A DNA stretch of 64,000 nucleotides, from NCBI RefSeq assembly GCF_016026235.1, contig NZ_CP065613.1. One strand, given 5' to 3'. The position numbers and the translations under genes were made by a program. This stretch comes from Escherichia coli (lineage in GTDB: Bacteria > Pseudomonadota > Gammaproteobacteria > Enterobacterales > Enterobacteriaceae). Below the pieces are notes generated by a model. It saw only the letters and a list, made by a program, of their open reading frames with translations. It made no database searches and was not told where the DNA came from. Positions 13,128-60,811 of the stretch are shown here, one piece after another; within the stretch, counting starts at the first letter, position 1; every line of letters starts with the position of its first letter.

Positions 13128-13281
13128 TTTTAGCGACATTATTTTGTTAGCCGGAGATGGCGTTCAGACCCGATCCGGCCACATTATCCCACGCATGGTC
13201 AGCAAACTGACATTATCTCTCCGCCCTGGCAGGCATCAGAAAATCGCTCATACTTTAATCGGTAAACAGCACCTTTAGATG

Positions 13282-14707
13282 TAATGCCAGTCAGTTAAGC
13301 AACTGACTGGCTCTTTTTCGGGGCTGTGGGGTATTTCCAGGGCCTCTCCTTTACCACTCTCGGGAAGGCCCTTCCCCTTCTCGTCGGTAATTTCACAAGT
13401 TGTCCCATACTTGCAAGATCGCGCATCAGCTCCGGTATACGTCCCGGTGAAGCGCCCTGCAATGTCATCAGCATTCTCATCACCATTCCGCATGATTCTG
13501 AGAAACTCAGTTGATTCGGCCAGTAACCTTTCAGATGTTCCGCCATTTTAATCATCTGATATCTCACCAGATTATAAGCCAGTAAGACACCCCACAGCTC
13601 TTGCTCCACAAGCTCCGGCTTTTTACTTCTCAGCGTCAGCCTGCTCAGTTGCATCGTCTGTTTTATCTCCCTGTATCCCAGTTCGATTTCCCAGCGATGA
13701 CTGTACAGATCCGCCATTTCTCCTCCGGGGAAGCGCATGGCGTCCGTCATCGACGTCAGCAGATGGCAGACTTTTCCTTTGCGCGTCACGGTCAGCAGGC
13801 GGGCTGTCACTTCATTTCCCAGTCCCGGCCACTTTTTTCGTGCCTGCGGGCTGGTTTTCAGCTTCACCAGATGATCGCCTTTACCCAGTTTTCTGAGCTC
13901 TTCATATTGCGCTCCCTTTCTGAGAGGTATCATCCAGTGGCGGTGTTCTCCCGCCAGGCTCCAGGCATTTAACAGTCCCAGTGAGTAATAACCTTTATCC
14001 ATTAACGTCAGAGTGTTATCGCCGGTTTGTTCTATAAGTTGCTCAGCAAGCTCATTTTCGCTGTTCTTCATCGTGCCGAAGGCTGCAGCCGTCAGCAGAT
14101 GGCTGGTCAGTTCCATCTGGCAGACCATTTTGACCTGCGGGTAGAGCGCCGGGTTCCCGGCATGTGTCTGGCGGGGGAAGGCTGCATCGTTCTCTGGTGT
14201 ATCCGGTGTGCGCCAGAACACACCATCGATGGCCAGCAGGGTCAGGCCGCACCAGTGCGGATGCGGCGTGGCGTTATGCCAGAGCTGCGCTGTTTTCGTG
14301 AACACGCGGCGGACAGCCTCACTTCCCAGGCGCTGGCGGGCCTGAATAACGGCACTGGGGGCAACGAAGGGGCGATTGCCCGGCAGCATGATGTCCAGGC
14401 GATTCACAATCTGGTGAAGAGGTTCTTTACGCTCAAGCGCCATGCCAACAATACACCAGACCATCATTTCGAGGGGAAGACGGCGCTTGCGTAGCGTTAC
14501 AGTACCTGATTCGGCAAGGCAACGAGAGATGAGTTCGGGGTCGAGGTAATCCCCCAGAGAAGTCAGTGGGTTACGCAGAGAATCGTAACGGGATACCAGA
14601 TCAAGAGCCTGTCCAATGTGCATAAAAAAATCCGGAAACAAGTGAGCGTTTCCGGATTCTTACACAGCCACTGGATCGGTCAACTGATCCTTAACTGATC
14701 GGCATTA
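13282..14707 (-). mobile_element. IS4, copy 1 (1426 bp)
   Basis: Ends TAATGCCAGTCAGTTAAG...CTTAACTGATCGGCATTA; 12-bp target site duplication CACCTTTAGATG at 13270-13281 and 14708-14719; inserted between baeR and yegP. Confidence 0.9.
13295..14623 (-). CDS. insG: IS4 transposase InsG (442 aa)
   Basis: ORF track 448 aa; start trimmed to [10 protein letters not shown] by recognition of IS4 transposase. Confidence 0.9.
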
Positions 14708-14755
14708 CACCTTTAGATGCTGTTTTCGATACACAATTTCAATCAAGGAGTCATT

Positions 14756-15088
14756 ATGGCTGGTTGGTTTGAACTCAGTAAGAGCAGTGATAATCAGTTC
14801 CGGTTTGTGCTAAAAGCGGGCAATGGTGAGACTATCCTCACCAGCGAGCTGTATACCTCAAAAGCCTCTGCGGAAAAGGGCATCGCGTCGGTGCGTAGCA
14901 ACAGCCCGCAAGAAGAACGCTATGAGAAAAAAACGGCAAGTAACGGCAAATTCTATTTCAATCTGAAAGCCGCTAATCATCAAATTATCGGCTCCAGCCA
15001 GATGTACGCCACCGCGCAATCTCGTGAAACCGGAATTGCCTCCGTTAAAGCCAATGGCACAAGCCAGACGGTGAAAGACAATACGTAA
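14756..15088 (+). CDS. yegP: YegP (UPF0339 family, 110 aa)
   Basis: ORF track 14717-15088; start at MAGWFELSK with GGAG SD; the IS4 end lies 49 bp upstream. Confidence 0.8.
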   Translation: MAGWFELSKSSDNQFRFVLKAGNGETILTSELYTSKASAEKGIASVRSNSPQEERYEKKTASNGKFYFNLKAANHQIIGSSQMYATAQSRETGIASVKANGTSQTVKDNT

Positions 15089-15341
15089 TTACGATGCCGG
15101 GCGTGGGTTGTTGGCGTCCGGCTTTATATCCAAATAACGCTTAGTTATTAATAATTAAGAGTAACCGCCGCCATTAAAATAGTGGGCACTGACGAGCACT
15201 CGTTGTGCTTTCTTTGTTTACCATCCCATACTTATCCTCCTGAACATGTTCATGTGCCAAAATATCTTCTAATACTTTCGTGACGCTATCCGGTTTATGA
15301 CATACACTGATGTAAGATTTTTACTTACAGGCGGGCGTAAA

Positions 15342-15593
15342 ATGGCCAGAACGATGACGGTTGATCTCGGCGATGAGTTGCGTGAATTTATCGAGTCCTT
15401 AATTGAATCCGGCGACTATCGCACCCAAAGCGAAGTGATCCGTGAGTCACTGCGATTACTTCGAGAAAAGCAAGCAGAGTCTCGCCTGCAAGCGTTACGT
15501 GACATGCTCGCAGAAGGGTTGAGTAGTGGTGAAGCTCAGCCGTGGGAAAAGGACGCGTTCTTACGGAAGGTGAAAGCAGGGATAAGGAAATAA
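15342..15593 (+). CDS. ParD-like ribbon-helix-helix antitoxin (83 aa)
   Basis: Start chosen at MARTMTVDLGDELREF; small acidic protein; stop lies 1 bp before the downstream ParE-like ORF; not at this position in K-12 as far as I recall. Confidence 0.6.
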   Translation: MARTMTVDLGDELREFIESLIESGDYRTQSEVIRESLRLLREKQAESRLQALRDMLAEGLSSGEAQPWEKDAFLRKVKAGIRK

Positions 15594-15594
15594 T

Positions 15595-15891
15595 GTGCGT
15601 ATTATTAAACTCATGCCAAAAGCCAATGAGGATTTAGAAGGCATCTGGTATTACAGCTATCACCATTTCGGCGAACCACAAGCCGACAGATATGTGGAAC
15701 ATCTTTCAGACGTTCTCCAGATTCTGAGTAACAATAATATAGGTACGCCCAGACCTGAATTAGGCGAAGGTATTTTTGTTCTTCCTTTTGAACGCCACGT
15801 CATTTATTTCCTGCAATCACCAGGGGAAATTATCGTCATTCGTATCCTTAACCAAAACCAGAACGCCACCAGACATTTACACTGGAGCTAA
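15595..15891 (+). CDS. ParE/RelE-superfamily toxin (98 aa)
   Basis: ORF track; GTG start adjacent to the antitoxin stop (alternative ATG at 15613); typical ParE length and pairing. Confidence 0.6.
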   Translation: MRIIKLMPKANEDLEGIWYYSYHHFGEPQADRYVEHLSDVLQILSNNNIGTPRPELGEGIFVLPFERHVIYFLQSPGEIIVIRILNQNQNATRHLHWS

Positions 15892-15993
15892 ACCCGCCGA
15901 TTGCGCTACAATGCCCGCCCTTAAAGTGGGGGCACTCCCCTAACCGCTTCATCAGGTGAAGCGGATCTGACCTGTCATCAGAACGAGAGAATT

Positions 15994-17355
15994 ATGTTTA
16001 AACCGGAACTCCTTTCCCCGGCGGGAACGCTGAAAAATATGCGTTACGCTTTCGCTTATGGCGCAGATGCTGTTTATGCGGGCCAGCCGCGTTATTCCCT
16101 GCGTGTGCGCAACAACGAATTCAACCACGAAAATCTTCAGCTCGGCATCAATGAAGCCCACGCGCTGGGGAAAAAGTTTTATGTCGTGGTCAACATTGCA
16201 CCGCACAACGCCAAGCTGAAAACCTTTATCCGTGACCTGAAACCGGTGGTGGAAATGGGGCCGGATGCGCTGATTATGTCCGATCCAGGGCTGATTATGC
16301 TGGTGCGTGAGCACTTCCCTGAAATGCCGATCCACCTTTCGGTGCAGGCTAACGCCGTGAACTGGGCGACGGTGAAATTCTGGCAGCAAATGGGCCTGAC
16401 CCGCGTGATCCTCTCTCGCGAGCTGTCGCTGGAAGAGATTGAAGAGATCCGCAATCAGGTGCCGGATATGGAGATCGAGATCTTCGTTCACGGCGCGCTG
16501 TGCATGGCCTACTCCGGTCGCTGCCTGCTCTCTGGCTATATCAACAAGCGCGACCCGAACCAGGGCACCTGCACCAACGCCTGCCGCTGGGAGTACAACG
16601 TCCAGGAAGGGAAAGAAGATGATGTTGGCAACATCGTACACAAGTACGAGCCGATTCCGGTGCAAAATGTTGAGCCGACGCTGGGTATCGGCGCACCAAC
16701 CGACAAAGTGTTTATGATCGAAGAGGCCCAGCGTCCGGGCGAGTATATGACCGCGTTTGAAGATGAGCACGGCACTTACATCATGAACTCGAAAGATCTG
16801 CGCGCCATCGCCCATGTAGAACGCCTGACCAAAATGGGCGTGCATTCGCTGAAAATCGAAGGTCGTACCAAATCTTTCTACTATTGTGCACGCACCGCAC
16901 AGGTTTACCGCAAAGCTATCGATGACGCCGCTGCGGGAAAACCGTTCGATACCAGCCTGCTGGAAACTCTGGAAGGTCTGGCGCATCGTGGCTATACCGA
17001 AGGTTTCCTGCGTCGTCATACTCACGACGATTATCAGAACTACGAATACGGTTATTCAGTTTCTGACCGCCAGCAGTTTGTTGGTGAGTTTACCGGTGAG
17101 CGCAAGGGGGACCTCGCGGCGGTAGCGGTGAAAAATAAATTCTCCGTTGGCGACAGCCTTGAGCTGATGACGCCGCAAGGCAACATTAATTTTACCCTTG
17201 AGCACATGGAAAACGCCAAAGGCGAAGCTATGCCGATAGCACCAGGCGATGGTTATACTGTGTGGCTCCCGGTCCCGCAGGATCTTGAGCTCAATTACGC
17301 GCTGCTGATGCGTAATTTCTCCGGGGAAACCACGCGTAATCCCCACGGTAAGTGA
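15994..17355 (+). CDS. yegQ: U32-family peptidase YegQ / RlhA (453 aa)
   Basis: ORF track; sequence recognised as K-12 YegQ. Confidence 0.88.
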   Translation: MFKPELLSPAGTLKNMRYAFAYGADAVYAGQPRYSLRVRNNEFNHENLQLGINEAHALGKKFYVVVNIAPHNAKLKTFIRDLKPVVEMGPDALIMSDPGLIMLVREHFPEMPIHLSVQANAVNWATVKFWQQMGLTRVILSRELSLEEIEEIRNQVPDMEIEIFVHGALCMAYSGRCLLSGYINKRDPNQGTCTNACRWEYNVQEGKEDDVGNIVHKYEPIPVQNVEPTLGIGAPTDKVFMIEEAQRPGEYMTAFEDEHGTYIMNSKDLRAIAHVERLTKMGVHSLKIEGRTKSFYYCARTAQVYRKAIDDAAAGKPFDTSLLETLEGLAHRGYTEGFLRRHTHDDYQNYEYGYSVSDRQQFVGEFTGERKGDLAAVAVKNKFSVGDSLELMTPQGNINFTLEHMENAKGEAMPIAPGDGYTVWLPVPQDLELNYALLMRNFSGETTRNPHGK

Positions 17356-17439
17356 TTAATTTCGATTATTTTTCCCGGATGGAAAATTCTTAGAAACCGA
17401 TCACATACAGCTGCATTTATTAAGGTTATCATCCGTTTC

Positions 17440-17526
17440 GCTGAAAAACATAACCCATAAAATGCTAGCTGTACCAGGAACCACCTCCTTAGCCTGTGTA
17501 ATCTCCCTTACACGGGCTTATTTTTT
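17440..17526 (+). ncRNA. cyaR: CyaR (RyeE) Hfq-dependent sRNA
   Basis: 87-nt match to remembered CyaR sequence GCUGAAAAACAUAACCCAUAAAAUGCUAGCUGUACCAGGAACCACCUCCUUAGCCUGUGUAAUCUCCCUUACACGGGCUUAUUUUUU, ending in a terminator hairpin and T-run. Confidence 0.85.
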
Positions 17527-17684
17527 ATGCATAAGCCCTATCCCTGGTCACCGTCTTCCATTGACCACATCGATAGAATCTCCCTTCATAGCACGATGCC
17601 TTTCACGTAACGGCATCGTGCTCGCACAGGTTCCGGCTAAGCACAACCAGAACGCGCATGTTTGACGCTTACCAAAAAATATTC

Positions 17685-18002
17685 TCACTCTCCACATTTG
17701 AATGTCAGACGAGCGACGCCATGTAATCCTGCACCTTCTGTCTTCAGGTCAACTATCTGCATTTTTTTGCCCTGAGTAACACAGAAATGGGCTGCATCAT
17801 TTTTTACTATATTTTCTGCACCAGATATTCTGCCCCTGGCTAAAGAAGCTTCGGCTTCGGTGTAGTATTGGTTATCGAGTTTACGCTGAATATTACTTTT
17901 ATATGCAAGACCAAATTTACCGATACTTGTCTCATCATTATGCACAGCACAACCAGACATAATAAAAATACTAATTAATGATATAGCAGCTATCTTTTTC
18001 AT
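17685..18002 (-). CDS. yegR: YegR small lipoprotein (105 aa)
   Basis: ORF track 17685-18062; start trimmed to MKKIAAISLISIFIMSGC (signal peptide with lipobox). Confidence 0.75.
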   Translation of the reverse strand: MKKIAAISLISIFIMSGCAVHNDETSIGKFGLAYKSNIQRKLDNQYYTEAEASLARGRISGAENIVKNDAAHFCVTQGKKMQIVDLKTEGAGLHGVARLTFKCGE

Positions 18003-18407
18003 CTCACCTTCCCCCATTAAATACCAACGACACTCTCTAGTGTTTAAATATAATAATGGCATGATTATTATAATTGAATAGGATTATAATAAATGTTCTG
18101 TACAACATTTCCTACATAAGTAGGAATTACGGACATTGAGGCCCTTCAGGGTAACTCCATGGGGGCTTTAATATATTATATTGAAGATGCCACTGTTTAG
18201 TTGAATATTAGGTATATGCTCTTTTTTGAAATTTATCGGTGGCAGCCGTTAGTATTCGCTGTCCCCATTGCAAGCTCCTGGTGGTAACCACTGAATCCTC
18301 CATACTTGAACTGACTTTTTATCCTCCGACTTTCATCCTGTTCTGACTCCACCTTTTGTTTTCTGCTCTACACTATCTACAGACCAATCATAAAGGCACA
18401 TACGATC

Positions 18408-60120: not shown

Positions 60121-60203
60121 GTTGGTACGAAATGTTGCACAATCAGCAAGTTAGCGTCACTGTAGTAAATAAAAGAACCTGCCTCACCAGCAGGTTTTTT
60201 TAT
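60121..60203 (+). ncRNA. orzO: OrzO-like antitoxin sRNA (~83 nt)
   Basis: Predicted TSS 7 nt after the -10; 5' end GUUGGUACGAAAUGUUGC is complementary (one G-U) to the zor 5' UTR at 59955-59972; ends at terminator CCTGCCTCACCAGCAGG plus T7. Confidence 0.65.
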
Positions 60204-60728: not shown

Positions 60729-60811
60729 GTTGGAACACGATGTTGCACAGGCTGTGGTGTTAGGCCTGAAAATAGTAAATAAAAGAACCTGCCTCACCAG
60801 CAGGTTTTTTT
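60729..60811 (+). ncRNA. orzP: OrzP-like antitoxin sRNA (~83 nt)
   Basis: 5' end GUUGGAACACGAUGUUGCAC pairs with the unit-2 UTR at 60563-60582 (one mismatch); terminator CCTGCCTCACCAGCAGG plus T7. Confidence 0.65.

Follow-up and report, generated by a model that had tools for sequence, protein, structure and literature searches.

A probable ParD/ParE-type toxin-antitoxin operon on an accessory insert between yegP and yegQ of Escherichia coli

What is the pair of small genes that separates yegP from yegQ in some chromosomes of Escherichia coli, and does it form a working toxin-antitoxin (TA) system or the residue of one? The question is raised by a window of 64,000 nucleotides (the whole stretch of DNA that was analysed, from contig NZ_CP065613.1 of E. 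coli assembly GCF_016026235.1), for which an initial annotation, made from the letters alone, had proposed a ParD/ParE-like TA pair inserted as a strain-specific module between these two genes. The analyses described here support that interpretation as a whole, since each element of it that was tested held, with two refinements concerning the term strain-specific and a neighboring copy of the insertion sequence IS4. Specifically, the locus is very probably an intact, autoregulated type II TA operon of the ParE/PF03693 (ParD) class that sits on a short insert gained by horizontal transfer. Its layout is that of a type II system, namely two small, co-oriented genes in which the antitoxin gene lies upstream and a single nucleotide separates the two:

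15342..15593, + strand: parD, antitoxin gene, 83 amino acids (aa), identified by matches to PF03693, TIGR02606 and PrpA
15595..15891, + strand: parE, toxin gene, 98 aa with a GTG start, identified by PF05016, matches in the Protein Data Bank (PDB) and an AlphaFold2 model

The product of the upstream gene has a ribbon-helix-helix domain at its N-terminus and a toxin-binding region at its C-terminus. It matches the Pfam family ParD_antitoxin (PF03693) with an E-value of 4.7e-19 over model positions 1-76 of 81, and it scores 88.4 bits (2.3e-25) against the NCBIfam model TIGR02606, "type II toxin-antitoxin system ParD family antitoxin", for which the curated cut-off is 46.2. Its best match among solved structures is PrpA of Pseudoalteromonas rubra (7ycs_D; 1.9e-27 over residues 2-78), with which it shares an identical ribbon-helix-helix β-strand, RTMTVD. 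Next in the PDB are ParD2 of Vibrio cholerae, ParD1 of Caulobacter and ParD1 of Mycobacterium tuberculosis, the whole set ranging from 1.9e-27 to 9e-11. The Pfam scan of this protein returned PF03693 and RHH_1 only, with no match to PF09386, the family of the RK2-type ParD. These matches bear out the description of an 83-aa antitoxin of the ribbon-helix-helix type in the initial annotation.

The same annotation combined the length of 83 aa with a start at 15297, and of these the length stands while the coordinate does not. The open reading frame, which ends with TAA at 15593, can be opened at ATG 15297 to give 98 aa or at ATG 15342 to give 83 aa (MARTMTVDLG...). Homology with plasmid copies of the pair starts just upstream of 15342, and the ATG at 15297, which is positioned within the promoter/operator region, is out of frame both in E. 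coli O55:H7 and in Escherichia whittamii, while the 83-aa protein of the window is matched there at 100% and 98.8% identity, respectively. For these reasons, and because the promoter and palindrome described below precede it, 15342 is taken as the true start of parD. The antitoxin in RefSeq, as called by the Prokaryotic Genome Annotation Pipeline (PGAP), has 98 aa from ATG 15297 and, judged by this comparison, starts too early; in O55:H7 DEC5E (L004 1631-1928), the labelling of the gene as a "frameshifted" pseudogene is an artefact of this longer start.

The GTG start of parE follows the parD stop codon after one spacer base (15594), and its Shine-Dalgarno sequence, AAGGA at 15584-15588, lies inside the end of parD. 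The encoded protein matches the Pfam family ParE_toxin (PF05016) at 3e-13, and its four best sequence matches in the PDB are all ParE toxins, namely PrpT (1.1e-11), CcParE1 of Caulobacter (4.5e-8), MtParE1 of M. tuberculosis (2.8e-7) and VcParE2 of V. cholerae (2.2e-6). An AlphaFold2 model built from a 12-sequence alignment (pLDDT 90.4) has the topology β-α-α-β-β-β with a long N-terminal α-hairpin, and a Foldseek search of the PDB with this model ranked PrpT, VcParE2, MtParE1 and CcParE1 first, with template modeling (TM) scores of 0.83-0.88, a range that covers five solved ParE toxins, and root-mean-square deviations (rmsd) of 1.1-1.9 Å. As modeled, then, the toxin is ParE-like and not RelE-like within its superfamily, and the pair combines the two marks of the ParE/ParD(PF03693) class, an antitoxin of the PF03693/TIGR02606 family and a toxin with the ParE fold. 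The initial annotation had described a 98-aa ParE/RelE-like frame beginning 1 bp downstream of the antitoxin; the Pfam and PDB matches, the model and the Foldseek ranking all agree with this, and the ParE/RelE fold whose lack would have spoken against it is present.

The claim of autoregulation relies upon two elements situated ahead of parD:

15280..15308, + strand: putative σ70 promoter, with a -35 box GTGACG at 15280-15285, a 17-nucleotide spacer and a -10 box TACACT at 15303-15308
15311..15329, no strand assigned: palindrome TGTAAG-ATTTTTA-CTTACA, a putative ParD operator, supported by its conservation in homologous loci

A scan for consensus promoters missed the first of these because only 8 of its 12 consensus positions match; its -10 box aligns with TATAAT, TATACT or TATAGT boxes of homologous loci. 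The palindrome follows the -10 box and precedes the ribosome-binding site that serves the ATG at 15342. Upstream regions of the window, of O55:H7, of a Klebsiella plasmid and of an E. coli IncF plasmid were aligned, and approximately 20 Enterobacterales parDE loci were then inspected: all of them contain TGTAAG(A)-N5-7-(T)CTTACA, directly following a TATACT, TATAAT or TATAGT box and 10-20 nucleotides ahead of the Shine-Dalgarno sequence and ATG, in surrounding non-coding DNA that is unalignable across the loci. The palindrome is thus likely to be the ParD operator, and the arrangement of promoter and palindrome appears to be the classic layout of a TA promoter repressed by its antitoxin.

By homology with characterized members of the class, the operon may be expected to work as follows. 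The weak σ70 promoter would drive a bicistronic parD-parE mRNA, and ParD dimers would bind the palindrome, which overlaps the transcription start, by means of their ribbon-helix-helix domain and so repress the operon. The C-terminal helices of ParD would wrap around ParE and neutralize it, while translational coupling of parE to parD, together with its GTG start, would keep the level of toxin under that of antitoxin. Were ParD to be depleted, free ParE would be predicted to poison DNA gyrase by way of its N-terminal α-hairpin, with DNA breaks, induction of the SOS response, filamentation and growth arrest as the expected consequences. The most likely reason for the persistence of the pair on the chromosome is that it acts as a selfish or stabilizing addiction module.

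The DNA that carries the pair, and its immediate surroundings, are as follows:

15123..15902, no strand assigned: accessory insert, defined by BLAST comparison with the K-12 derivative J53
14756..15088, + strand: yegP, left flanking core gene, from the annotation of matching RefSeq records
15096..15122, + strand: terminator hairpin of yegP (GCCGGGCG...CGTCCGGC), from a scan for terminator-like structures
15994..17355, + strand: yegQ/trhP, right flanking core gene, from the annotation of matching RefSeq records

Homology with J53 ends at 15122 and restarts at 15903, so that an insert of 780 bp in the yegP-yegQ spacer takes the place of 21 bp (GCTTTACCAGAGCCCCCCACA) in K-12. In the latter, yegQ comes directly after yegP with a spacer of 146 bp and the pair is absent, just as the initial annotation had stated. 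The GC content of the insert is 43.8%, compared with about 50.7% for the flanking genes. Its left junction falls directly 3' of the yegP terminator hairpin, for which the insert provides the T-rich tail TTTATAT. Terminal inverted repeats and direct repeats were sought at the boundaries of the insert and none were found.

Of 5426 complete E. coli genomes, 1845 contain the insert, in a single copy in each and always on the chromosome, and the whole stretch from yegP through the insert to yegQ is colinear with the window in 1843 genomes. Carriers include O103:H2 12009, O104:H4 and B7A, while K-12, C600 and O157:H7 are without it; the PGAP names in carriers are "type II toxin-antitoxin system ParD family antitoxin" and "RelE/ParE family toxin". 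When empty sites were compared across four divergent lineages, their boundaries were identical and the filler, of 21-22 bp, varied slightly. The insert also occupies the same position in E. whittamii, in a region colinear from baeS to yegS, where nucleotide identity to the window is 95% for parD and parE, 85% for yegP and 93% for yegQ. Between the window and E. whittamii the synonymous divergence (dS) is about 0.17-0.23, and the ratio of nonsynonymous to synonymous divergence (dN/dS) is 0.02 for parD and 0.13 for parE, the range for parE being 0.13-0.17 when O55:H7 is compared as well. Both genes are thus under purifying selection, and we read the insert, on these comparisons, as an old presence/absence polymorphism in which both genes have probably been kept functional. 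The selection on the two genes also lends indirect support to the predicted growth arrest by ParE and its neutralization by ParD. The module is accordingly accessory, as first proposed, and is not shared by K-12 and all relatives; the term strain-specific understated its reach, which extends to about one third of the sequenced E. coli strains and to E. whittamii at the same site. Some database matches were set aside in the course of this survey. An apparent partial insert in E. coli BS-04 (NZ_CP172819.1; L003 2650-3000), comprising the first 162 bp, is a homopolymer-rich assembly or sequencing artefact and not an allele, and two plasmid matches of at least 99% identity are records of 1.4 Mb and 4.8 Mb, evidently mislabelled chromosomes.

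The left portion of the insert, about 180 bp (15123-15300), has no counterpart in the plasmid parDE relatives, whose homology begins near 15302, and is about 84% conserved in E. whittamii. It contains a perfect 12-bp palindrome, TGAACATGTTCA, at 15241-15252, an AT-rich palindrome at 15137-15162 and a terminator-like hairpin at 15194-15210. An Rfam scan of 15050-16050 found no known RNA in the 220-bp leader of the insert, its sole match being sub-threshold and attributable to chance (6A RNA, E = 0.85). The short open reading frames and palindromes of this portion are treated as unexplained donor-context DNA, given their absence from the plasmid relatives. In some strains, of which E. coli ECONIH2 is an example, a different island encoding DUF4034, DUF1266 and PcfJ-domain proteins replaces yegP and the region upstream of yegQ; the junction upstream of yegQ is a variable spot that receives more than one kind of cargo.

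Could the pair have arrived as cargo of a transposable element? The initial annotation drew attention to an IS4 copy about 0.6 kb upstream, and its end does lie 590 bp from 15297 (635 bp from the start at 15342), on the other side of yegP from the insert. This IS4 is complete (1426 bp, 13282-14707, in the baeR-yegP spacer) and is bordered by its own 12-bp target duplication (CACCTTTAGATG) at 13270-13281 and 14708-14719; among the carrier genomes listed, H1 (NN5) alone matches the IS4 end. On account of this duplication and of the absence of the IS4 end from the other listed carriers, IS4 is an independent, unrelated insertion, and acquisition of the pair through it was rejected. With no repeats at the boundaries of the insert and no linkage to IS4, the features of transposon or insertion sequence cargo are lacking. 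As IS4 stops 48 bp ahead of the yegP start codon (14756), it may change the expression of yegP.

Comparison with characterized systems places the pair closest to PrpA/PrpT of the P. rubra plasmid pMBL6842 (PDB 7YCS/7YCU), a member of the same ParE/PF03693 class. Gene order is equal and sizes are similar (86 and 98 aa in the P. rubra pair, 83 and 98 aa in the window), the RTMTVD β-strand of the antitoxin is identical, both toxins have Phe at the tip of the hairpin, and PrpT is the best match of the toxin in structure (TM 0.88, rmsd 1.1 Å) as well as in sequence, although the two are only about 31% identical. PrpT is lethal and causes filamentation in E. coli, while PrpA neutralizes PrpT, binds its own promoter and sets plasmid copy number through iteron binding (PMC7848731). 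In this last respect the systems differ, since PrpA/PrpT is plasmid-borne whereas the present pair is chromosomal with no replicon nearby. The chromosomal systems ParDE1 of Caulobacter (3KXE), ParDE1 of M. tuberculosis (8C24) and ParDE2 of V. cholerae (7R5A) likewise pair a PF03693 ribbon-helix-helix antitoxin with a toxin of the ParE fold (TM 0.83-0.85) that shares the C-terminal motif R-[IV]-L-x-Q, but toxin identity is just 27-30% and these toxins carry Trp, not Phe, at the hairpin tip. RK2 ParDE and the yacAB-type ParDE-I of IncI and IncF plasmids (Kamruzzaman and Iredell 2019) also consist of a ParE-superfamily toxin and an upstream antitoxin; RK2 ParE inhibits gyrase and ParDE-I is predicted to do so. 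The RK2 antitoxin belongs to PF09386 (PMC7848731) whereas the ParD of the window belongs to PF03693, and ParE-I, reported to be only 15% identical to CcParE1, represents a lineage different from the plasmid relatives found here.

Those plasmid relatives are the closest natural relatives of the pair. At the DNA level they were found on 880 plasmids with 68-71% identity, and relatives of the toxin protein were found on 1206 plasmids, most of which are conjugative, with Escherichia, Klebsiella and Enterobacter as their main hosts. Examples from Klebsiella pneumoniae (plasmid pINF078-VP), Pantoea stewartii and E. coli IncF plasmids share with the window the operator palindrome and the position of the -10 box, and their antitoxins are 91-92% identical to that of the window; in contrast, their toxins are only 59-64% identical, that is, diverged by about 36-41%. 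The copy on pINF078-VP is intact (antitoxin 91.6% and toxin 63.9% amino acid identity). The E. coli IncF copies, by comparison, are unannotated pseudogenes: hundreds of these plasmids carry a decayed parDE with in-frame stops and a frameshift, an example being L007 2545-3084 on the IncFIA/FIB plasmid pRIVM_C039227_1. About 1.4 kb separates the IncF copy from a gene for an initiator of the RepB family, which merits mention because PrpA regulates the binding of RepB to iterons in P. rubra.

Contrary to expectation, the antitoxin of this ParDE subfamily is more conserved than the toxin, by 20-30 percentage points across all Enterobacterales loci, and in the comparison with plasmid copies parD has a dN of 0.057 and parE one of 0.25. 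This asymmetry leads to the likeliest of the alternatives, itself unlikely, according to which the locus is an attenuated or domesticated remnant where ParD has been kept as a DNA-binding regulator and the toxin is weak or non-toxic, at the least in the allele of the window. In several species, and likewise on E. coli IncF plasmids, the toxin is indeed cut short or interrupted by stop codons, whereas its partner has stayed intact or has suffered less. Moreover, codon 90 of the window toxin (15862-15864) reads AAC (Asn), in contrast to the GAC (Asp) of almost every E. coli copy, the exact N90 toxin being found on 30 contigs compared with at least 1000 for D90, and the hairpin tip has Phe in place of Trp. 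Set against these points, the carrier genomes examined encode the toxin at full length, and the dN/dS of parE given above indicates purifying selection and not decay.

The substitution at codon 90 belongs to a number of points that weigh against an intact, active operon. Residue 90 is a nearly invariant Asp throughout the subfamily. The residue at the tip of the toxin hairpin is Phe, in place of the Trp25 that is important in VcParE2, a toxin that acts on gyrase via its α-hairpin and in which W25F lowers toxicity, and some ParE proteins, such as ParE1 of Pseudomonas aeruginosa, have been reported to be non-toxic (bioRxiv 10.1101/2025.07.24.666505). The NCBIfam search with the toxin matched no model. 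The operator motif of PrpA, TTTG(T/A)AAT, was sought at the locus and is absent, the palindrome TGTAAG-N7-CTTACA standing there instead, so that operator specificity would be unlike that of PrpA/PrpT. A search of the literature for a TA system linked to yegP or yegQ, or for mention of the RefSeq protein accessions, brought up no paper on the locus, and the toxicity of ParE, its neutralization and its gyrase target are all inferred by homology. As to the two residues, CcParE1, which is toxic, likewise carries Asn where residue 90 aligns, and PrpT is a potent toxin despite the Phe at its hairpin tip. An intact TA operon remains the preferred reading.

A different role, quite unlikely, would have the chromosomal ParD acting mainly in trans upon plasmids, either as an anti-addiction factor against the ParE of IncF and Klebsiella plasmids or as a modulator of replication in the manner of PrpA, which controls plasmid copy number via iterons (PMC7848731). 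ParD could act in this way because its identity to the antitoxins encoded on Klebsiella, Pantoea and IncF plasmids is about 92% and extends over most of the toxin-binding region at the C-terminus, and because ParD evolves 4-5 times more slowly than the toxin; the abundance of relatives on mostly conjugative Enterobacterales plasmids, together with the proximity of the IncF copy to a RepB-family gene, fits such a role. If true, the yegP-yegQ polymorphism would shape which plasmids can be kept or lost by one third of E. coli strains. The proposal is, however, purely inferential: the limited identity of the plasmid toxins to the chromosomal one means that cross-neutralization need not occur, the locus lacks the motif bound by PrpA, and the majority of the IncF copies in E. 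coli have already become pseudogenes, against which an antidote is unneeded.

That the module might be an abortive-infection system is very unlikely. Protection against phages is known for some TA systems of type II, and this locus is a variable spot with other accessory islands in some strains, but neither protein matched the PADLOC models at E <= 0.01, relatives are almost absent from the phage collection (2 weak matches) and adjacent defence genes are lacking. It is less probable still that the toxin acts as an mRNA endonuclease of the RelE type, dependent on ribosomes, and not as a gyrase poison, for although ParE and RelE share one superfamily fold, PGAP uses the generic name "RelE/ParE family toxin" and RelE-type structures do appear lower in the Foldseek list, the best matches in sequence and structure are all ParE toxins, RelE, YoeB and YafQ rank under every ParE entry at TM 0.5-0.65, the model has the long N-terminal α-hairpin typical of ParE, and the partner is a PF03693 ParD, not an antitoxin of the RelB/Phd type.

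Other elements of the window were noted along the way. Beyond yegQ, in the region 17356-18062, lies the small RNA (sRNA) CyaR at 17438-17523, while ogrK and the P2-like prophage remnant found between yegQ and yegR in K-12 are absent from the window and from O103:H2 12009. Upstream of mdtA, at about 300-1770, is a transposase gene of ISEc60, which is IS4-like (open reading frame 525-1766); it sits between the type I loci SibA/ibsA and SibB/ibsB (SIB RNAs at 100-248 and 1749-1881), an arrangement common to only 4 of the 5426 complete E. coli genomes. Two tandem matches to the antitoxin sRNA OrzO-P, at 60128-60201 and 60736-60811 (88.8 and 99.9 bits), indicate a zor-orz type I TA pair.

What, finally, does the locus mean for E. 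coli and for the ParDE family? The pair is a routine accessory type II TA system of a well-studied family and is already known as such: RefSeq and UniRef give both genes correct names, and the RefSeq labels are found in more than 1800 complete genomes. The present analysis adds to this the parD start at 15342, the candidate operator TGTAAG-N7-CTTACA, the age of the insert and the conservation of the antitoxin above that of the toxin; beyond good annotation, the importance of the finding is small. A 2025 review lists ParDE with the loci found on E. coli plasmids (PMC11869752), and a pangenome study reports a statistical link in which the acquisition of genes of the ParDE family tends to come before mutations to quinolone resistance in this species (PMC10575684). 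Given that link, and since ParE toxins target gyrase, a common chromosomal ParDE pair such as the one between yegP and yegQ is a reasonable, if unremarkable, candidate in this connection.

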